The notes: a model not told the origin generated them from the sequence alone. Positions 29,746 to 45,348 are shown, numbered from the stretch's first letter. The stretch is DNA of 64,000 bases from an uncultured Bacteroidales bacterium (GCA_963732575.1 CAVTAA010000003.1:66537-130536), one strand, 5' to 3'. A program made the numbers and translations.

Positions 29746-31896
29746 ATGAAAAAACAGTCACTGCTGCTGATACTATTAATCACACTTCTGCCGGGCACGG
29801 CCAGGGCCGACGAGGGAATGTGGATACCGGTGCTGATAGAGAAGTACAATATCAGGATCATGCAGGAAAACGGATTTAAGCTCACTGCCGAAGATATCTA
29901 CAGTATCAACAGGGCATCGATGAAGGATGCGGTTGTGCTCTTTGGCGGCGGTTGCACAGGAGAATTCATATCAGACAGAGGTCTGATACTGACCAATCAC
30001 CACTGCGGTTTTGGCTCAATCCAAAACCACTCAACCCTTGAGCATGACTACCTTACTGACGGTTTCTGGGCTTCGACCAAAGATGAAGAGCTATCCAATC
30101 CCGGACTGTCTGTAACCATTATGAAGTACATGGAAGATGTCACGGAAAAGGTGCTTGAGGGTGTAACTGATGATATGGATCCGGAAAAGAGGGAGGCGGT
30201 TGTCAACGCCAATATTACCGCAATCAACGCTGAAGCAGTCAAAGGAACTCATTATGCCTCCATGGTCATGCCTTTCTTCCTGGGGAACCAGTATTTCCTG
30301 ATTGTTAACGAGGTGTTCCGTGATGTGAGGCTTGTTGGCGCACCGCCATCGTCTATAGGTAAGTTCGGTGGCGACACCGACAACTGGGTCTGGCCGCGCC
30401 ATACAGGCGACTTCTCCCTGTTCAGGGTCTATGCAGACAGCGCCAATAAACCTGCCGGATATTCCGCTGACAATGTGCCATATAAGCCTGCCTATCATTT
30501 TCCTGTCTCGCTCAGCGGCGTGAAAGAAGGCGATTTTACAATGGTCTTCGGATATCCTGCCAGAACACAGCAGTATGCTCCTTCAAACCACATCAGAATG
30601 CTTAAGGATATAATTTATCCGAAACAGGTTGAAATACGCGGATCCAAGATCGCTATTATAGAGCAGGAGATGGCCAAAGATCCTCTTGTAAGGATAAAAT
30701 ACGCGGGTAAATCATACGGACTTTCCAACGGATGGAAAAAATGGATAGGGGAAATACAGAGCCTTGACAAAACAAACGGAATAGCCCGCAAGGAAGCCTT
30801 TGAAAAAGAATTCTCCGGATGGGCTGCTGCCGATCCGGTCAGGTCGGTGAAATATGGCAACCTGTTCGGAAACTATGACGAGATTTACAAGACATACAGT
30901 ACCCTGTCACTTGTAAACAGCTACACGGCTGAAGTCTTCTTTAACAACGGTGCAGAACCTGCATGGCTTGCCAACAACTTCAGCAGTGCAGTGAAAATGG
31001 CAGGCATAAAGAACCCGGACCTGGAGAAAGAACTGAAGCGACTGCAGGGCATAGCCGGTGAATTTTTCAAGGATTATGACATGGCGGTTGCCAAAAGACT
31101 TTTTGTTGCCGTAATGGAGCTCTATGGTAAAAATATTGATCCTGCCTGGCAGTCACTGGCTTATAAAGAGCTTTACGCATCATGCAATGGTGACTTTAAG
31201 TCTGTTACTGACAAGCTGTTTGCCAGATCAATATTCACCGACGAAAAGAAGGTGCAGGAGCTGCTTGATAGATTTGATCCTAAGAAAGTAAAAAAAGATC
31301 CGTTCTATCTGCTTGCCTATTCTGCCACTGAACTGCTTGATACGAAAGTCAGGCCTGAGCTGTCAGCGCTGAATGCCCGTCTTGCAGTCCTTAACAGGAC
31401 ATACATGGCGGCACAGATGGAGCAGGGTAGCGGCAAGGTCTTTTACCCGGATGCCAACTTCACACTCCGGCTCGCGTACGGCAAGGTCATGGGATATGAT
31501 TCCAGGGACGCTGTTTATCATAAGCATTTCACCACCCTTACAGGGGTGATTGAGAAGGATAACCCTGAAATATATGACTATGACGTCCCGGACAAGCTTA
31601 AGGAACTGTATCAGAAAAAGGATTTTGGCCGATATGCCGTCAACGGTGATGTGCCGGTATGCTTTATAGCCAACAACCACACTACGGGAGGCAACTCCGG
31701 AAGTCCGGTTCTGAATGCCGATGGTCACCTGATAGGCATCAATTTTGACCGCGCATGGGAGGGGGTGGCCTCAGACATAATGTTCAACCCGCTTCAAAGC
31801 CGCAACATCAGCCTTGACATAAGGTATGTCCTCTTTATCATTGAGAAGTTCGCCGGGGCGGACTATCTCATACAGGAGATGACACTGGCTGAATAG
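29746..31896 (+). CDS. S46 family dipeptidyl peptidase, DPP11-like
   Basis: ADEGMW, TNHHC, TGGNSGSP, FDRAWEG. Confidence 0.9.
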   Translation: MKKQSLLLILLITLLPGTARADEGMWIPVLIEKYNIRIMQENGFKLTAEDIYSINRASMKDAVVLFGGGCTGEFISDRGLILTNHHCGFGSIQNHSTLEHDYLTDGFWASTKDEELSNPGLSVTIMKYMEDVTEKVLEGVTDDMDPEKREAVVNANITAINAEAVKGTHYASMVMPFFLGNQYFLIVNEVFRDVRLVGAPPSSIGKFGGDTDNWVWPRHTGDFSLFRVYADSANKPAGYSADNVPYKPAYHFPVSLSGVKEGDFTMVFGYPARTQQYAPSNHIRMLKDIIYPKQVEIRGSKIAIIEQEMAKDPLVRIKYAGKSYGLSNGWKKWIGEIQSLDKTNGIARKEAFEKEFSGWAAADPVRSVKYGNLFGNYDEIYKTYSTLSLVNSYTAEVFFNNGAEPAWLANNFSSAVKMAGIKNPDLEKELKRLQGIAGEFFKDYDMAVAKRLFVAVMELYGKNIDPAWQSLAYKELYASCNGDFKSVTDKLFARSIFTDEKKVQELLDRFDPKKVKKDPFYLLAYSATELLDTKVRPELSALNARLAVLNRTYMAAQMEQGSGKVFYPDANFTLRLAYGKVMGYDSRDAVYHKHFTTLTGVIEKDNPEIYDYDVPDKLKELYQKKDFGRYAVNGDVPVCFIANNHTTGGNSGSPVLNADGHLIGINFDRAWEGVASDIMFNPLQSRNISLDIRYVLFIIEKFAGADYLIQEMTLAE

Positions 31897-34800
31897 CAGC
31901 CTGTGCATATTCTTTCACCTGGAATACAAACGCCTGGAGCCTGGTGTCAAGTGATACCGTATCCTGTCCGTCATAAGGAATATTTATGAACGGAATGTTG
32001 TTATAGTCTTTACGGAATGAATCACTAACTGACGCAACAAGGGTCCCGGGCATACATGTGAAAGGCAGTATCGCGGCAATTCCTGCTACGCCCCTGGAGG
32101 CGAGGGCGGCTGATGATCCCATTGCTATCGGGGGATCACCGTCATAGAACTCACTTACGTATTTGTTGCTAAGCTCCAGCATTTCCTCAAGCGAAACATC
32201 CAGTTTTGTGTCAGTGTATTTGTGAATACCGTGAAGGAGGTACTCAACAATGACTTCCTGCCCAACACCCTGTATCTTTGATTTTATCAGTCCTTTGGTG
32301 TCATTTTTCCATTTGCTGTCGCGTGTATAGCGATGGGTGGAATACGTTATCCATTCCGAGAACGGGCCTATCAGGACTTCCACGCCGAGTGCCTCAAGCC
32401 TGTTGGCGATATTACCGTTACAGCCAGCATTGTCGCGCATGTAAACCTCTCCCAGGATTGCCACAACAGGTCTCCTGTGGCTTCTGTCGGCCTGTATAGC
32501 CATGAAGTTGTTGGCTACCTCAACCAATACCTTTCTCAGGCCTCTGGATCCGTTTTCGATGGATTTTTCAATTTTCCTCAGTGAGGCTTCATAGACAGCA
32601 TCCGTTTCGCCTTTGTTTATTTCATAAGGTCGTATTTCCCTGTAAAGTTTCCTTACATAGTCAAACGAGACAAAGCCTTTCCAGGCATTGATCCTGAACT
32701 TCTGGCTTTGATCACCTGCAAGGTCAGCATATGATGTGTCGTTTGACGGGGTAACGAGCTCCGCATCCTTAAACCCGAGCCTGTCAAACAGTATCCTCTG
32801 GAACTGGTTATACTGGCCGAAACGGCACGGGCCGTTATGGTCGGGCATGAAGAAGCTCATCTTTGACGGGTCAGCGCCTGGCTCCATCAGCTTTTTAAGG
32901 AAGCTGCCTGTTGTGCAGATCATCGGGAAGCACTCTTTTGAGGAGGTGTACTTTCTTCCGAGAGCAATCTCCACTTCAGTCTGTTTGGGCAATACCTCTG
33001 AAGGAATGCCGACGCTTCTGGCCGCAGCTGCAACGAAGGCTGCACCGTCATGCATATAAGGAAAATAGAGAGTCCTGTTGGCAGGCGGAGCGGAGGGGCT
33101 GGGCCGTGGTCTGTGTATTGTCACAGCTTTCTTCGCATTCATTTCAGAGCCCTTAAGGCTGTCGAGGAAAGCCTCGATACGGGTGACCATTCCGGCATCA
33201 GCGGAGTGCTCATCCACTTCAAGATGCAGGAAGGGTTTGCCTTTCAGCTCTTCTGTGACATAATGCCATATGAATGAATCAGGACCGCATCTGAAATTAC
33301 TGATATAGACTGCATACATACCTTCTGTTTTTGAGACAAACTGGGCTGCAGCAATCATCTTCTGACCGTTTGGCCAGTACATGTTCCTGTAATTACCGTA
33401 GATCTTGTATGATGAAAGGTCAAGCATGTCAAGCGGGATAGGCATGACATCCTGCACAAGCAGTTTTTCCGTCAGATCAAGGTTAAGATGCGGATCGGCA
33501 CTGTTGTAAGGCCTTCCGAGGATCACCACCGGGCGGCACTTTTCAGGGATATTCTTCAGCGCTTCCCTGCCGTATTCAACAAGACCCTTTTCAAATGAGA
33601 CCTGAACTCCGTCAGCCTTATAAATAGCATTCTTTATATCTTCTTTTTTCAATCCGAACTTCTCACTGAAAAATGCTGACAGTTCTTTTACCAGGGCACG
33701 TTCAAAGTACCTGAAGTGGAGGGTGGGAGTGAGGAACTTTGATTCGTCAACCTTACCTTTGAGGGCAGCCTTGACCATAAACGGAAATGACTGTATCCAT
33801 GGGCAGTTAGTGTTGGATGTTGTGTCTCCCTCGCGGTATTTCCCGTTGACTACAAACGGCATGAATACGATAATCGACGTTTTTCTCGAGCAGATCGATC
33901 ACATGACCGTGCATAAGCTCAACAGGAAGACAGGTCTCTGATGAGATGGTCTCAATTGAACGCGAGACCAGTGCCTTATCGGATTCCCTTGAAACAACCA
34001 CGTTAAATCCAAGCTCCTGGAAGAAGGTCCTCCAGAACGGGAACTGCTGGTAATAAACCATGAGGGCCCGTGGAATGCCTATGGTTGTTTTTCCGTTAGC
34101 CTCTGTCTCCTCATAGTCACCACGAAGCATTTCGAGTCTCTTACTGAAGAGGTTTGGTATGTGTCCGGTATTCTTCTTACGGCCGTCAGTCTCATATTTT
34201 TCACAGCGCCCGCCGTAGTACAGTGATTTCTTCTCGCCTGTGATGTTAATCCTGCTTATTTCGCAGTTGTTGACGCAGCTCTTGCAGACAAACCTGCTCA
34301 TCTCATAGGTCACATTACGTACGCCAAAGCCCTTGAAGGTGGTCTTCTGCCCTTCTGTCATCGATCTCTGTGCAAGGATGGCGGCGCCTATTGCACCGGT
34401 CACGTCAAAGTGCGGCGGTATGGTGATCTTTTTTCCGGTTACCTGCTCGAAGGCGGCCACAACAGCCTTATTGTTTGTAACACCTCCCTGGAAAAAGATC
34501 TTGTTACCGACCTTCCGGTCTGCAACTACTTTCTGCAGGTAATTGTAAACGATGGAATATGCAAGTCCTCCGACCAGATTATCGTTTTTAGCGCCCTTCT
34601 GCATAAAGGAGTTAAGGTCTGATTCCATGAACACCGTGCAGCGGTCACCCAGCTTGACGGGACTTTCTGACTTGAGAGCCATGTTCCCGAATTGCTCAAC
34701 GATCCTGATATTGAGTTTCTCAGCCTGCTCCTCGAGGAATGATCCTGTGCCGGCGGCACAGACTTTGTTCATCTCGAAGTCTACCACCACCCCGTTTTCA

Positions 34801-36128
34801 ATGCTGATATATTTTGAATCCTGTCCGCCGATCTCAAATATCGTATCAACGGTGGGATCATAGTCAATGGCGGCGGTTGCCTGCGCCGTTATTTCATTCT
34901 GGATTGTATCTGCCCCTATGAAATCACCTGTCAGGTACCGGCCTGAGCCCGTCGTTCCCGCACCGATGACTTCCACATGCTCTCCTATCTCATCATAAAT
35001 CTCTGTCATCCCTCTCTGGATGGCATCCAATGGCTTGCCCGCTGTCGGGAGGTAACGCCTGGCAACAACGTTATGCTTTTTGTCAATCAGAACGACGTTT
35101 GTACTCAGTGAGCCTACATCGATGCCAAGGTACACAGGCAGTTTATCGGTTCCGTTCTTGTGGAATTTTATTTCCTTATTGTATATTGCTTCTGACTCTA
35201 TGAGCTGTGGCAGGCTTACAAATTTGGATGCGTGTTTCTTAAGATAGGCCTGCAGCTCATCAAGACCTTTAAAAGGATTACTATCCAGCTTGCTGGAGTG
35301 GCTGTACATCACTGCCCCGATGGCACCCATTGATGCATGGTGAGTGGGTATGATAAGCTCATCTCCTTTAAGGTCAAGCACTTCCCTGAACGCTCTAACC
35401 ATTCCTATATTTGCTGCCACGCCTCCTGAGAAGATGACAGGTTTCTTGATCTCCTTGCTGCGGGCGACGGTGCTGCGGAAATTACGTGCAAGCGCAAAGC
35501 ACAGTCCTGCTACAATATCATGCAGGGGGGTGGCCAGCTGTTGGTGATGTATCATGTCGCTTTTTGCGAATACACTGCATCTGCCTGCAATGCGCGGCGG
35601 ATTGACCGATTTCATGGCCATCTCACCGAACTCCTTCTCGATAGGGACACCTATTCTTTTTGCCTGTTGGTCAAGGAATGATCCTGTACCTGCGGCACAG
35701 ATGCTGTTCATCTCAAAGTCAACGAGCCTGGCGTGATCATCCCCGGGATTCTTCTCAAGGTTAATCAGTTTGGAGTCTTCGCCCCCGATCTCAATTACCG
35801 TCCGTGCCTCAGGGTAGAGCCTGCCTGCTGATGTGGCCTGCGCAATGATCTCATTTACAAATACGCCCCCGATTAGTCCTGCGGCCAGCTTACCGCCTGT
35901 GCCAGTAAGTGCAATGCTTTTTATGGTGGCAGCCGGATATTTTTTCAGTATAGATGAGAACCTGTCATAAAGCATATTGAAAGGTTTACCATGAACGTAG
36001 TCATAGTAATCTTCAATGATGTTATAGTTATCATCCAGAAGAACCGTATTGAGAGAAACTGATCCGATGTCAAGTCCGATATAAAACGACTGACCTGAAA
36101 TGTCAGGAGAAGCTTTTGTATTAGCCAT
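31868..36128 (-). CDS. Acyl-CoA dehydratase activase (two BadF/BadG/BcrA/BcrD ATPase domains + DUF2229), one gene split by apparent frameshift near 33866
   Basis: Two CAAGTGSFL and two EIGGxDSK motifs; KNVDY|VFMPF joins the two ORFs if one base is removed. Confidence 0.85.
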
Positions 36129-36222
36129 GATTAACAATTTAGTAAAGAAAAGTCCGATCTACCTTTATCAAGCCGTGAAGTTAAGGATTTTCAGCAAAAA
36201 ATGCACATCCCTGTTGTCACTG

Positions 36223-39368: not shown

Positions 39369-39929
39369 TTGAAGCTCTATATCAAAAATATGGTTAGCCT
39401 CCGTTGCATAATGCTGGTGAAATCGGAGCTGGAAAAGGCGGGTTTGCATTATGGTTCAGTCGAATTGTGCGAGGCTGAAATAATAGAGGATATTTCACCG
39501 GAGCAGCGCGAAAACCTCTCAATTGCCCTTGAAAAGACCGGGCTTGAGGTGATGCAGGACAAAAAAAGCATCCTGGTTGAAAGAATAAAAGCAGTTATCA
39601 TTGACCTGGTGCATAATACCGATGAGCAGATCAAAATAAACCTTTCCACCCACCTGAGCGAGAAACTCAATCACAATTACACCTATCTGGGAAACCTTTT
39701 TTCAGAAGTAAGGGGGGTTACCATTGAGAAGTTTTACCTGGCGCACAAAATTGAGAAGGTAAAAGAACTGCTTATATATGATGAACTCAATCTCACCGAA
39801 ATAGCCTGGAAACTGCATTACAGCAGTGTAGCCCATCTTTCAAACCAGTTCAGGAAAATGACCGGGCTTACCCCGTCTCAGTTTAAGAAACTGAAGAACA
39901 AAAAACCTCAGGGTTTGGAAAATGTGTGA
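39369..39929 (+). CDS. AraC family transcriptional regulator (short N-terminal IKNMVSLRC domain)
   Basis: YTYLGNLFSE, LTEIAWKLHYSSVAHLSNQFRKMTGLTPS; TTG start; plain TAATTTTG promoter at 39330. Confidence 0.92.
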   Translation: MKLYIKNMVSLRCIMLVKSELEKAGLHYGSVELCEAEIIEDISPEQRENLSIALEKTGLEVMQDKKSILVERIKAVIIDLVHNTDEQIKINLSTHLSEKLNHNYTYLGNLFSEVRGVTIEKFYLAHKIEKVKELLIYDELNLTEIAWKLHYSSVAHLSNQFRKMTGLTPSQFKKLKNKKPQGLENV

Positions 39930-39960
39930 ATAATGTAACTTTTTCCTGAAATTATGTAAA
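39923..39960 (+). promoter_or_regulatory. Regulon box 4 (overlaps AraC stop codon; upstream of small ORF and kaiC)
   Basis: TGTGTGAATAATGTAACTTTTTCCTGAAATTATGTAAA; CAACTTTG 21 nt downstream. Confidence 0.8.
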
Positions 39961-40026
39961 GTTTCTGAGTTTAAAGGACTTCAACTTTGTATTGTAGTTT
40001 GAACTCACTTTACACCGACTTTGTCC

Positions 40027-40176
40027 ATGATCATGAAAACAAGGGATGATTTATCTACTGCGGAGTTTAAAGCCCGATCAAAGCTTAAATCTGCCATTTT
40101 AATTGCCTCCAGCCTTTCAATGTGCGTATGCCTGGTTTTAGGCTCTATTATTTATTTAATCCATAGACTAGCCTAG
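40027..40176 (+). CDS. Putative 49-aa single-TM small protein
   Basis: MIMKTRDDLSTAEFKARSKLKSAILIASSLSMCVCLVLGSIIYLIHRLA; first ORF after box 4; below ORF-track cutoff. Confidence 0.5.
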   Translation: MIMKTRDDLSTAEFKARSKLKSAILIASSLSMCVCLVLGSIIYLIHRLA

Positions 40177-40348: not shown

Positions 40349-42084
40349 ATGAAAAAGGCAGAGCCCAAATCGTTAGAAAATATTCTTCTCAAATCTCCCA
40401 CCGGAATTCAGGGATTTGATGAAATAACAGGCGGTGGATTACCAACAGGCAGACCAACCCTGGTATGTGGCAGTGCCGGATGTGGAAAAACACTTTTCGG
40501 AATGGAGTTTCTGATACGTGGCACAACTCAGTTTAACGAACCGGGTGTATTTATGTCATTCGAGGAAACCAATGAAGAATTAATTAAAAATGTTGCTTCT
40601 CTCGGGTTTGATCTGGAAGACCTTATCAAACATAAAAAAATTGCACTTGACCATGTTCATATTGAGCGCAGCGAAATAGAAGAAACCGGTGAATACGATC
40701 TGGAAGGTTTATTCATACGCCTTAATTATGCTATTGATTCTATTGGGGCAAAGCGTGTCGTTTTGGACACTATCGAATCACTGTTTGCCGGATTGCCAAA
40801 CCAACTGATCCTGCGCGCTGAACTGCGGCGGTTATTTCGCTGGTTGAAAGATAAAGGTGTTACTGCAATTATTACAGGCGAGCGCGGAGATGAGACTCTT
40901 ACCAGGCAAGGGTTGGAAGAATATGTTTCAGATTGCGTTATTATGCTCGACCATCGTGTTACCGAACAGACCTCTACACGTCGTTTACGGGTTGTAAAGT
41001 ACCGTGGTTCTTTACATGGGACCAATGAGTATCCGTTTCTGATTGATGAAAACGGTTTTTCAGTATTACCGGTAACTTCGCTGGGATTAGGACATATTGT
41101 ATCAAACAAAAGAATCTCAAGCGGTATAACTGCACTTGATAAAATGCTTGAAGGAAAAGGTTATTACCGCGGTAGCACTGTACTTGTTTCAGGTACTGCA
41201 GGGGTAGGAAAAACAAGTGTGGCAGCTCACTTTGCAGAGGCGGCATGTAAACGAGGTGAACGTGTTCTTTATTTCTGTTTCGAAGAATCTCCAAACCAGC
41301 TTAATGCGCAATATGCGTTCCATTGGTATAAAATTAGAACCCTGGGTGCATAAAGGACTTTTGCAATTCCAGGCAACCCGGCCAACATTGTACGGCCTGG
41401 AAATGCATCTGGCTGTAACTCACAAAGCTGTAAATGCATTCAAACCTGATATTGTTATTCTGGATCCAATAAATACTTTCATCATTGGGGAAAAAGAGAA
41501 CGAAGTAAAAACAATGTTAATGCGTATTGTTGATTTTCTTAAAGCGAATCAAATAACGACATTGTTTACCAGCCTTACTTCAAGCGAAAGCGCGTTAGAA
41601 AGTTCTGATGTCGGAATATCATCCCTGATAGATACCTGGTTATTACTTCGCGATATAGAATTAAACGGTGAACGAAACAGGGGAATGTATGTTCTTAAAT
41701 CACGCGGAATGGCTAATTCTAACCAAATTCGTGAATTCATTTTAACTGACCACGGCGTAAAATTACGTGAGGTTTATATTGGTGCCAGTGGAGTTTTAAC
41801 CGGATCAGCCCGTATTGCACAGGAAGCTCTTGAAAATGCTGAAGTGTTGACACGGAAGCAAGATATTGAAAGCAAAAAACGTGAATTAGAACGAAAACGC
41901 AAGGCATTAGAGGCTACAGATTGCTACATTGAATGCCGATTTTGAATCGGAAGAATCCGAAGCTTTTAAAATGATAGAAACTGAACAGGAATTGATTAAA
42001 CGACTGGAACAGGATAAAATAGAAATGGCAGTCAGCAGAAAAGGAGCTAATGGAAGTAGTATAACCAGCAAAATGAAAAAATAA
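40349..42084 (+). CDS. kaiC: Double-domain KaiC (apparent frameshifts near 41300 and 41917)
   Basis: Two Walker A (GSAGCGKT, GTAGVGKT), FEE motifs, VVKYRGS and VLKSRG, ISSLIDTW phosphosite region, coiled-coil tail. Confidence 0.9.
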
Positions 42085-42100
42085 TTAAAACAAGTATCCT

Positions 42101-42444
42101 ATGAAACCAAAAAAGGGAAATCCAGGACAAAAAACTTAAAAAAAGAAAACACGGCTAAAACGGCAGATGATAAGTGGATCCTTCGTTTATACGTTGCAGG
42201 ACAATCTCCAAAAGCTCTTACAGCATTTGCAAATCTGAAAAAAATATGTGAAGAACAATTAAAGGGGAAATACTGAATTGAAGTAATTGATCTTTTGATA
42301 AATCCACAATTGGGAAACGAGGACCAGATTCTTGCCTTGCCAACATTAGTAAGAAAATTGCCGGTGCCTGTTCGTAAGATAATAGGTGATCTATCAGATA
42401 CAGAACGTGTTCTTGTCGGATTGGATTTAAAGCCTGTCATCTGA
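42101..42444 (+). pseudogene. kaiB: KaiB copy 1, disrupted in this sequence (N-terminal frameshift, in-frame TGA at 42274)
   Basis: Not in ORF track; [84 protein letters not shown]. Confidence 0.8.
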
Positions 42445-42476
42445 TTTATAAATGCAAAATTTTATCAGTTATAACC

Positions 42477-42830
42477 ATGAAAGAGAAAAAAACAAAAGCA
42501 AAAGGACCAGCGGCAAAGATGGATCTGGCAATGTCTGAATCCGGCAAGGATAAATATATTCTGCGTTTATACATCACCGGTACAACAAGTCGGTCAGTCC
42601 TGGCCCTTACAAACCTGAAAAAGATTTGCGAAGAGTATCTTGAAGGACAATACGAACTGGAAGTGATTGACCTTTATCGAATGCCAGGTTTAGCAAAAGA
42701 TGAACAGATAATTGCAGCCCCGACATTGATTAAAAAACTGCCTCTTCCATTCCGTCGAATCATTGGGGATATGTCAGACATTGAAAAAGTACTTATGGGA
42801 TTAGACCTTAAAAAGATAAAAGACCTGTAA
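42477..42830 (+). CDS. kaiB: KaiB copy 2
   Basis: YILRLYITG, LEVIDL, IIAAPTLIKKLPLPFRRIIGD. Confidence 0.93.
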   Translation: MKEKKTKAKGPAAKMDLAMSESGKDKYILRLYITGTTSRSVLALTNLKKICEEYLEGQYELEVIDLYRMPGLAKDEQIIAAPTLIKKLPLPFRRIIGDMSDIEKVLMGLDLKKIKDL

Positions 42831-42875
42831 GGTTTTGAGGAATTTCAGAACATTTGATTTATTATAAAGACGTCA

Positions 42876-43590
42876 ATGACCAAAACAAAGGAACAACTCA
42901 TTATTGAGAATGACGAATTGCATTCTCGCCTGGCTGAAGCTGAAGAAACATTTTCAGCAATTCAAAGAGGTGATGTGGATGCGATTGTGGTATCAGGTAC
43001 GAAAGGAGCACAGGTCTATTCAATCAGCTCTGCTGAAACACCATATCGTACCTTCATAGAAGAAATGAATGAGGGAGCAGTCACTCTTACCAGATAAAGG
43101 GATTATTATCTATTGTAATCAGAGATTTGCTGATTTTGTGCACGAACCGATTGAGCGTGTGATTGGTTCATACTTTAAACGTTTCATAGTCCCGAATGAT
43201 ATATCAAAATTTAATAAATCACTTGCTCAACAGTCTGATAATAAGAGCGATGTACTGACAATATCTTTAATCAACTCGTTACATCTGAAATTATCCTTTA
43301 AGCTTTTGCCTGCTTATCTGCAAGGCGATTATTGCATACTGGTAGCAACTGACATATCAGAAATGAAGAAGGAAGAAAAAAAGCTTCTTGAATTATCCCG
43401 TTTATTGGAAAAGAAATTAGATGTAATACAACGTTTACGCATGCAACTTATTGATAATAAGATTGATGCTGATGTAGAAATTGAAAAATTAAAGAAAAAT
43501 ATCAAGAAACTGGTGAAGGAAATTGCCAGCCATAAGCTGGTTGAAAATGCATTAAAACAAAAACTAAAGCATAAGAAGGCAACTGCTTGA
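42876..43590 (+). CDS. PAS-domain/coiled-coil protein (frameshift near 43092), no kinase domain
   Basis: RLAEAEETFSAIQRGDVDAIVV, YRTFIEEMNEGA, YCNQRFA. Confidence 0.75.
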
Positions 43591-43596
43591 ATTACA

Positions 43597-45348
43597 ATGA
43601 AAGGACTATTGTATTTTCTCCTGGCGCTCCTTTTACTCAACAGTTGTGCTATTATCAGGTTTCCGGAATTTGGCAAGGTCCCCAAAAAGCCCGGCAGCTA
43701 TCCGAAGTTTACGGAAAAGGATTACCTGATAGGATCGCTTGATGAAGATCGCGCCGGCTATGATGTAACTTTCTATGACCTGGACCTTATCCTTGATCCG
43801 GATAACAGGAAGCTTGGGGGTATTGTAGATATTCATTTCAAGGCACTGACAGAACTCAGTAAAATCCGCTTTGACCTCTATGAAAATCTTGACATCAGCA
43901 GCCTGAAGATGTCGGGACAGGAGATCCCTTTTTTACGTAATGACAGAGCAGTGATTGCATCTCTTCCTGAACCCCTGGTTATTGGCGGTGATTATATTAT
44001 TGTGGTCGGATATGATGGTAAACCCACAAGCGCAAGAAATCCGCCATGGAGTGGCGGTGTGGTGTGGGAAAGAGACGAAAATGATAATCCCTGGATCGGA
44101 GTAACATGCGAAACTGAAGGGGGCAGTATATGGTTCCCCTGCAAAGACCACCTTTCCGATGAGCCCGACAGTGTCAGGCTCCGAATGACTGTTCCGGCAG
44201 GATTGCAGGTTGTTTCAAACGGTAGAATGCAGAGCCATACGTCAAATGAAGGCAGGGAAACATATACATGGAGCACACACTACCCTGTTAATATCTACAA
44301 TATGACCTTCTATGCAGGGACGTTTGCACATTTCAGCGACACAATGCTTACCCCGCAAGGCATCCTTAATCTTGATTATTATGTTCTGCCCCAAAACCTT
44401 GAAAAAGCAAAAGATCAATTCATTCAGGTAAAGGATATAATCAACCTTTATGCCAGGGCTTTCGGACCCTACCCTTGGATTAATGAGGGATTCCGGCTTG
44501 TTGAGGCACCGTTTGAAGGAATGGAGCATCAGACAGCCATAGCCTATGGAAGCAGTTATTCAAACCGGGCCTGGCTGGGAGGCGATTATGTAATAATCCA
44601 TGAGGCTGCCCATGAATGGTGGGGCAATGCCGTATCAGTAAGCGATTTTGGCGATATCTGGCTGCAGGAGGGATTCGCCACATATTCCGAAATGCTCTTT
44701 GCGGAGCATAAATTGGGATATGAGAACTCACTGCTGTATGCAAGGTACTTTATAGCCGGATCAATAAGGAATAAGCTGCCGGTTGTTGGCCCGGTGAATG
44801 TCAGCTACTGGAATAACAGGGACAATGATGTTTACAATAAAGGAGCTATGGTACTGCATACAATACGTAACGTATTGAACGACAGCACCATTTTCTTTGA
44901 TATCCTGCAGACCTTCTACCGTGAGCATGCAGCATCTTCGCATGTCACAACTGCCGATTTTATAGAGGTTGTTGAGCGGAAGACAGGGAAGGACTGGGAT
45001 AAATTCTTTGAAGCATACCTTTACCGCCGTGAGGTTCCGGTCCTTTACTGGTATTATGACCCTGCCTTTAATGATGAAAGTTACGGAACGGCTGAAAGGA
45101 AGGTGCCGGTTGTCGCGGCAAAATGGCTGAATGTTCCGGATGGCTTCAGCATGCCAGTCGAATTCTGGTGCAAAGATGAAAATGTCACAGTCAGGATGGA
45201 GGTGACAACAAAGCCGTCACTTATTTACCTTGACGATCTGACAGCATGTAGTAAACTGATCTGTAATAAGAGACTTTCTTACTTTGATGCCGTGACAGAT
45301 ATCAGCGTGCTGGCCGAAGCCGGATCTTCAGTAACCGGGGAAAAATAA
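43597..45348 (+). CDS. M1 family aminopeptidase (probable lipoprotein)
   Basis: GMEHQT, HEAAHEWWG, WLQEGFATY, YNKGA. Confidence 0.9.
   Translation: MKGLLYFLLALLLLNSCAIIRFPEFGKVPKKPGSYPKFTEKDYLIGSLDEDRAGYDVTFYDLDLILDPDNRKLGGIVDIHFKALTELSKIRFDLYENLDISSLKMSGQEIPFLRNDRAVIASLPEPLVIGGDYIIVVGYDGKPTSARNPPWSGGVVWERDENDNPWIGVTCETEGGSIWFPCKDHLSDEPDSVRLRMTVPAGLQVVSNGRMQSHTSNEGRETYTWSTHYPVNIYNMTFYAGTFAHFSDTMLTPQGILNLDYYVLPQNLEKAKDQFIQVKDIINLYARAFGPYPWINEGFRLVEAPFEGMEHQTAIAYGSSYSNRAWLGGDYVIIHEAAHEWWGNAVSVSDFGDIWLQEGFATYSEMLFAEHKLGYENSLLYARYFIAGSIRNKLPVVGPVNVSYWNNRDNDVYNKGAMVLHTIRNVLNDSTIFFDILQTFYREHAASSHVTTADFIEVVERKTGKDWDKFFEAYLYRREVPVLYWYYDPAFNDESYGTAERKVPVVAAKWLNVPDGFSMPVEFWCKDENVTVRMEVTTKPSLIYLDDLTACSKLICNKRLSYFDAVTDISVLAEAGSSVTGEK

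Follow-up and report, generated by a model that had tools for sequence, protein, structure and literature searches.

The 64,000-nucleotide stretch of uncultured Bacteroidales DNA analysed here (the window; all positions count from its start) lies in a genome that is 73% complete, G000, and carries on its plus strand, at 40349-43590, the genes kaiC, kaiB, a second kaiB and a PAS-protein gene, in the order first described in an earlier note made from the sequence alone. We find that this operon belongs to a Bacteroidales-centred clade in which the PAS partner has lost its kinase domains while staying under purifying selection, and in which kaiC lies close behind a repeat box (box 4 in the window). 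We propose, with confidence that is evenly divided, that the KaiC2-KaiB-KaiB operon, its kinase-less PAS protein and the stress-associated box together make up a stress-induced switch that responds to the ATP/ADP energy state, and not a daily clock.

A KaiC phylogeny, which the earlier note had suggested as a check, places the G000 protein in a single clade, with a FastTree support of 1.0 on 91 rows and 100/100 in IQ-TREE (32 of 55 rows, distant rows and identical duplicates being left out), and brings out a distinctive trait that the note had missed, namely the loss of the kinase from the PAS partner. The clade takes in records titled Prolixibacteraceae, Rikenellaceae, Lentimicrobium, Balneolaceae and Chitinophaga. 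A complete PAS frame of 232-250 aa is found in 20 of its 24 named loci, the other four of which end at contig edges, whereas complete frames outside the clade are at least 372 aa long, many with kinase similarity; the outside exception, L157, has a frame of 296 aa with a kinase match further downstream. The PAS protein of G034, a genome outside the clade, consists of PAS, HisKA and HATPase domains, while that of G017, a congener of G000 within the clade, has the PAS domain alone. The clade protein is built of an N-terminal helix and hairpin (the conserved GEVDA segment), a PAS domain and a long C-terminal helix; the structural model (pLDDT 87.9) has a helix at residues 8-34, the hairpin at 39-52, the PAS fold, and a helix at 164-239, and this 75-residue C-terminal helix is constant in length. 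Median dN/dS for eight sequences, compared in non-independent pairs, is 0.17 in the N-terminal segment, 0.24 in the PAS domain and 0.36 in the C-terminal helix, so that the protein is maintained and is not decaying. Its top Foldseek matches are LOV/PAS folds at 14-25% identity, and a protein-atlas search returned generic PAS clusters only. A short LOV protein was rejected as its identity, since GxNCRFLQ, the flavin-binding motif of such proteins, is absent from the alignment.

The box marks the same clade. When a box was counted only if it scored more than 20 bits and lay at most 700 nt from kaiC, and two loci without upstream DNA were left out, it was found at 20 of 23 clade loci, at none of 11 non-clade Bacteroidota loci and at none of 44 loci of other phyla, with 77-440 nt between box and kaiC start. 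By genome handle, 8 of the 9 clade members including G000 have a box near kaiC, and G034, G039 and G048 were negative; the locus and handle sets overlap by two sequences, and the counts are not summed. Across 25 loci, the genes preceding the box belong to 15 groups (about 13-14 if at least one wrong-frame AraC pick, that of G036, is discounted). Since the box accompanies kaiC behind so many different genes, the link suggested by the earlier note is no accident of position, and the box belongs to the operon and not to its AraC neighbour. In G034, with 10 strict boxes, and in the genome of L157, with 19, the regulon is present and the non-clade kai operons are unboxed.

Several observations weigh against so simple an association. 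The clade represents one evolutionary event and not 20 independent ones. L126 and L158 are kinase-less and come from genomes with both the regulon and the AraC gene, yet the 700 nt nearest to kaiC contain no box in either; in L119 the only box lies 1.5 kb upstream, ahead of two other genes; and the G001 box scores 11, below the cut-off. Furthermore, a strict box is missing altogether from 9 of the 11 Bacteroidota genomes outside the clade, so that their unboxed kai operons are a weak control, and G034 and the L157 genome are left as the only strong negative ones. L126 and L158 fall outside the other 30 clade rows on a short branch (support 96/86), and this position hints that the kinase may have been lost before the box was gained. 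Separately, a clade-type boxed kai operon lies on a 3.9-kb contig (L108) in a record titled Candidatus Nealsonbacteria, which is likely a mis-binned Bacteroidales contig or a transfer.

Box 4 itself (39924-39959, plus strand) consists of two direct-repeat half-sites, AATnATGTAA, with a 21-bp period, a putative activator site that is kept in all five aligned relatives. The window has 9 copies of the box and G000 has 13, box 4 included; all of them exceed 26 bits, while shuffled sequence reaches at most 19.3. At a fixed spacing after it on the same strand, at 39982-39989, lies the -7-like element CAACTTTG. Among 96 boxes chosen by the repeat alone, without use of the -7 positions, an A..TTT element occurs 26 nt past the box in 77 and at 25-28 nt in 86. 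This fixed spacing fits the Bacteroidota sigma-A -7 consensus TAnnTTTG, as given in the accessible part of PMC9723704, and the box is therefore likely to be an activator site ahead of a sigma-A promoter. The strict box pattern is found in 24 of 60 relatives, with no reversed-control matches, and in 50 of 261 genomes of the class (a tally that counts G000 and the handles G144 and G215), with five single control matches. Tandem half-sites are a feature of AraC/XylS class II promoters, as at araI1-I2 and for XylS at Pm. The arrangement here resembles those promoters in that a pair of direct repeats, spaced by two helical turns, ends immediately before the core promoter and adjoins an AraC gene; unlike them, it has a Bacteroidota -7 core and a different half-site sequence, and AraC binding is here a prediction.

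The earlier gene models had the order of the genes right, although the window copy proves more damaged than they implied, with five lesions, and a 49-codon open reading frame (ORF) sits between box 4 and kaiC. This small ORF (40027-40176, plus strand) encodes 49 aa with a hydrophobic C-terminal half, has no Pfam match and is the first gene 3' of the box; kaiC begins 172 nt after it in G000. It is absent before kaiC in G036, G011, L107 and L115, and is boxed as a gene by itself in G006, G029 and G009. The earlier note had held that a box-independent kaiC promoter would count against it; no TAnnTTTG was found between box 4 and kaiC in G000, nor in 6 of the 8 relatives checked, and there is no terminator-like site in the 172-nt gap. 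Scans for sigma-70 promoters and terminators gave chance-level counts, with one weak hairpin within the small ORF. Read-through from box 4 via the small ORF into kaiC is thus a plausible prediction. Small membrane ORFs of ~50 aa directly 3' of a box form a family that is itself a member of the regulon, with further examples in G000 (C2, near 754030) and in L044, L046 and L047.

On its sequence, the kaiC product (40349-42084, plus strand; ~577 aa, with two +1 frameshifts in the assembly) is a KaiC2 of the Rhodobacter sphaeroides type. It has two RecA-like domains, each with a Walker A motif (40469 and 41192), a catalytic EE (41276 in the second domain, 40556 in the first) and an arginine finger (KYRG and KSRG), features that are among the invariant columns of the KaiC alignment. 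The Ser-Ser reported earlier at the phosphosite position is indeed there, within ISSLID at 41616 (codons 41619-41624); the motif lines up with GLSSLMD in 8DBA and with the phosphomimetic EE in 8FWI, and Ser-Ser is found in 85 of 91 homologue rows. The best solved match of the intact KaiC of G017 (577 aa) is R. sphaeroides KaiC 8DBA (E 1e-204, through the tail to residue 542), compared with an E of about 1e-100 for cyanobacterial KaiC, and the top Foldseek matches of its model are 8FWI, 8FWJ and 8DBA, at TM-scores of ~0.42 with high rmsd and a monomer pTM of 0.50. In this model residues 485-575 form a single helix, the C-terminal tail, which exceeds the roughly 50 aa expected of the helical extension in the KaiC2 subgroup and shows selection, with a dN/dS of 0.18. 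Of the coiled-coil tail proposed earlier the long helix therefore stands, but a heptad test was not significant, and the label 'coiled coil' is based on homology to 8DBA/8FWI and on the helical model.

The absence of kaiA, first remarked for the window, holds for G000 at large and for its relatives: the KaiA family (PF07688) was matched neither in G000, with its 73% completeness, nor in five congeners that are 94-98% complete, in a search that matched the Synechococcus elongatus genome as positive control and did not look separately for divergent KaiA3-like proteins. According to the accessible part of 10.1101/2022.11.28.518275, the kaiC2 subgroup is defined by two serines and a C-terminal tail, and R. 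sphaeroides KaiC is under ATP/ADP control. The features singled out in the earlier note (Ser-Ser, tail, lack of KaiA) are the published definition of KaiC2, and its placing of the module among the KaiA-less KaiBC systems that have been associated with hourglass timing and stress is supported. The KaiABC circadian oscillator (KaiC1) and the KaiA3B3C3 system were rejected as candidates, as the KaiA-family search matched no partner and KaiC here has neither Ser-Thr sites nor a short tail-less form.

Both tandem kaiB genes and the PAS-protein gene are where they had been described, all on the plus strand: kaiB1 at 42101-42444 (~113 aa, with a frameshift and a TGA in the assembly), the second paralog at 42477-42830 (117 aa, intact) and the kinase-less PAS gene at 42876-43590 (~237 aa, with a +1 frameshift near 43096 in the assembly). 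The two KaiB paralogs are 53% identical to each other by profile comparison and both match KaiB of 8FWJ best, the first through its orthologue with an E of 1e-31. Of 544 loci with a relative of this KaiC, the best 80 were compared: 78 have a KaiB match, at least 57 show the two paralogs in the same order, first then second, and the conserved N-terminal segment of the PAS protein follows kaiB in 72 of the 78, in many phyla; none of the 80 has a KaiB-PAS fusion. Operons of this type are also found in archaea, Planctomycetota, Acidobacteriota and Deltaproteobacteria. Two kaiB genes followed by a PAS protein are thus common across phyla and not particular to this lineage. Longer tandem arrays of kaiB before the PAS protein also occur, with four genes in L160 and three in L134 (a Planctomycetota and a Solibacteraceae record).

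Products of the boxed window genes are outer-membrane barrels, an OmpA lipoprotein, MlaE and an M48 peptidase, and YtxH and AI-2E genes lie downstream of one window box. To these the boxed islands of relatives add CsbD, PfpI, OsmC and a catalase-like gene. Genes of the CsbD, YtxH, OsmC, PfpI and catalase types form a general-stress set. The regulon, which had been called an envelope-stress regulon, therefore looks like one better named for general stress than for envelope stress only. An ECF sigma factor gene directly behind a box in G005 (L101:3191-3685) is a possible second regulatory tier.

The best candidate activator of the box is the adjacent AraC-family regulator (39369-39929, plus strand; 186 aa, HTH_18 E 3e-17), the stop codon of which falls within box 4. 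At an E of 1e-40 or less, this AraC is found in 40 of 47 genomes that have the box and in 12 of 33 hand-picked genomes that lack it, related genomes not being independent; of the congeners, 9 of the 12 that have the AraC carry kaiC2, against 0 of the 24 that lack it. Against its candidacy stand those 12 box-negative genomes, and also G009, G029 and G006, which are 92-98% complete and have 4-6 boxes with no match to this AraC. Another regulator, for example a LytTR response regulator, might read the box instead, with AraC merely a member of the regulon. LytTR proteins also use spaced direct repeats and were found in all five genomes tested, AraC genes themselves often carry the box, and G240 and G315 join the three genomes above in bearing boxes without this AraC. 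However, LytTR proteins are present in box-poor G027 as well, so that the search, in which subfamilies were not compared, did not discriminate between genomes; the difference in AraC frequency between box-positive and box-negative genomes remains; and in G315, which has 16 boxes and no AraC match, a contig breaks off within the repeat kinase found after AraC at six other loci. On balance we regard another regulator as unlikely, if worth keeping in mind. The kinase in question is a large sensor kinase with many 21-residue repeats, located 3' of AraC and before a lone receiver protein (L193:8102-12022 in G214, L240 in G315, L199, L200 and L087), and its repeats break assemblies. A single decayed box in a congener without AraC (L207; G027:C8:90564) may be a relic left after loss of the regulator.

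Gene content, KaiC2 membership, kinase loss, purifying selection and inheritance of the box with the operon can be read from the sequences, and from there we propose the following model. An activator, most likely the small AraC protein, would bind the tandem half-sites, and sigma-A transcription would then start and run through the small ORF into kaiC-kaiB-kaiB-PAS. By analogy with R. sphaeroides, KaiC would autophosphorylate on Ser-Ser without KaiA, and rising ADP would lead to its dephosphorylation, sped by KaiB bound to the CI ring. In the two least certain steps, the PAS protein may dock on KaiBC via its conserved N-terminal segment and may relay the state of KaiBC by helix-helix contact to other signalling proteins of the regulon; contact is invoked because a PAS protein without a kinase cannot itself phosphorylate a response regulator. 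Of the earlier proposal of a stress or energy-state switch transcribed from box 4, the KaiBC type and the box link are thus retained, and the envelope-stress label is not. A complex prediction for residues 1-175 of the PAS protein (two copies) with the second KaiB gave a score of 0.31 against a mark of 0.32 and, run without controls, speaks neither for nor against binding. Weighing against the model is that no partner has been identified for the kinase-less PAS protein. One candidate output partner is a CheB-CheR-PAS fusion in the same boxed island (56546-60031; 975 aa, without HisKA or HATPase, frameshifted in G000). This gene is followed 3' by one for a 183-aa protein without a Pfam match, and the two, intact in G017 (L063:7346-10270 and L063:6790-7338), are apparently a second kinase-less signalling pair.

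A further possibility is an operon induced by stress but without any signalling output, in which the PAS protein does no more than regulate or stabilise KaiBC and the complex acts as an ATP-consuming or buffering device. The PAS protein has no transmitter domain, no conserved response regulator or kinase stands beside the operon, and the downstream genes vary from locus to locus. Yet a C-terminal helix held at a constant 75 residues by purifying selection is not obviously needed by an internal regulator, and the same N-terminal segment stands at the front of long output proteins in other phyla. We therefore consider an operon without output to be unlikely. More doubtful still is a timer of the R. 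sphaeroides hourglass type, which day and night changes in ATP/ADP would reset daily, the stress box setting no more than its expression level. Every sequence feature tied to the Rhodobacter hourglass is kept, including a tail under selection. However, Bacteroidales are not known to be phototrophs, and the operon type extends to the archaea and other phyla named above. The Rhodobacter cue, by contrast, is photosynthesis-driven according to the accessible part of 10.1101/2022.11.28.518275. Going beyond the energy-state switch that we favour, one may speculate that in one Bacteroidales lineage the widespread cassette was rewired from an input to a feedback element: with the kinase deleted and the operon captured by a hitherto undescribed AraC-driven general stress regulon, the PAS-helix protein would couple KaiBC phosphorylation back to the regulon's own kinases, and the Kai complex, as a sensor of ATP/ADP, would time the duration of the response. 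We give this elaboration little credence at present.

Whether the operon works in G000 itself depends on how its lesions are read. Alignment with five congeners reveals five in 3.2 kb: single extra bases in kaiC near 41302 and near 41914; in kaiB1, an extra base within the first 50 bases and a TGA at 42274-42276 where congeners have Gly or Ser codons; and an extra base in the PAS gene near 43096, the true extent of which is 42876-43590. This KaiC is carried by 9 of 36 congeners, five of which have an intact frame of 576-578 aa, the remaining carriers being broken at other sites. Across 420 kb of G017, 69 of 199 orthologues are broken in G000, and 82 of 100 frameshifts of G000 against this congener are +1 insertions, which also strike genes such as PPDK, RecG and cytochrome oxidase I. 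Given this +1 bias and the five intact congeners, the breaks in the window copy are very probably assembly errors. In contigs of related strains from four public runs, which contain at most 0.23 of the window's words, the extra base is absent at 41300-41303 (4/4 runs), 41916 (3/4) and 43096-43098 (3/4). Thus the true disruption of kaiC, which the earlier note had said would overturn it, is not what these breaks resemble.

Counting against assembly error, the lesions adjoin 44.7 kb free of frameshifts and could reflect real decay in this strain. The kai operon of G000 would then be a true pseudogene, with a working system only in relatives, and it is so that one of the five lesions is a stop codon and that the flanking genes to 51 kb are intact. 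Frameshifts are patchy in G000, none occurring in the 44.7 kb left of the operon and 0.79 per kb just right of it; four in 3.2 kb have a P of about 0.055 at the genome mean rate and of 0.26 at the right-hand rate. In addition, all four frameshifts are +1, matching the genome-wide bias, KaiC protein identity to G017 is still 88-93%, and box 4 ranks among the strongest boxes of the genome. A pseudogene is accordingly quite unlikely, and we retain assembly error as the explanation.

The core KaiC2/KaiB module is ordinary, and the KaiC2 family, its presence in Bacteroidetes and kaiC-kaiB-PAS/kinase operons have already been published. The module is like the KaiBC hourglass of R. sphaeroides (8DBA, 8FWI, 8FWJ) in its double-domain Ser-Ser KaiC, helical tail and lack of KaiA; unlike it, the module has two KaiB paralogs, ~53% identical, a kinase-less PAS partner and a stress-regulon box, and is known here from sequence and from a monomer model that does not bear on dodecamer assembly. 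As far as the accessible text of PMC4794148 goes, kaiC, kaiB and a PAS/histidine-kinase gene form one predicted operon in Rhodopseudomonas palustris and R. sphaeroides; the order is the same here, with HisKA and HATPase missing and a second kaiB added. The part of PMC5520375 available to us states that Bacteroidetes encode only KaiB2/KaiC2-like proteins and attributes two serines to KaiC2, with a citation for a role of Legionella KaiC2 in stress; the proteins are of the same type as ours, and the operon context, promoter and kinase-less partner are not described in that part. In environmental Pseudomonas, a KaiC-like protein has a role in stress resistance and binds the PAS domain of a neighbouring kinase (10.1101/2022.01.26.477890, accessible part). 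Unlike the present module, that system is described there as lacking KaiB and having a complete kinase; it is a precedent for a KaiC-PAS contact.

What is added here is a tree-based count showing that the box and kinase loss mark the same clade, a selection test and an error analysis; in a literature search whose scope excluded subscription papers and preprint supplements, no paper was found that describes the box, its regulon or a PAS partner lacking the kinase. For the role of KaiBC in non-photosynthetic bacteria, a clade-wide box shared with classic general-stress genes offers a concrete condition for induction, a candidate activator and a site that can be mutated. Furthermore, the kinase-less partner isolates the conserved Kai-associated N-terminal segment as a small protein, of use in finding the output contacts of KaiBC.

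Some minor observations concern the surroundings of the operon. An Rfam scan of window positions 36000-60500 gave no matches. An M1 peptidase gene (43597-45348, plus strand) starts 6 bases past the PAS stop; it neighbours the PAS gene only in the subgroup nearest G000 and lies outside the conserved module. At the other side, a CoA-activase-type gene (31868-36137, minus strand) is in two frames and is split at the same place in G017, so that this break is not specific to G000. The GC content is 0.409 in the boxed island at 36300-60100 and 0.386 in the kai operon, against 0.49 in window positions 1-33000, and the low value of the island suggests an acquired block.

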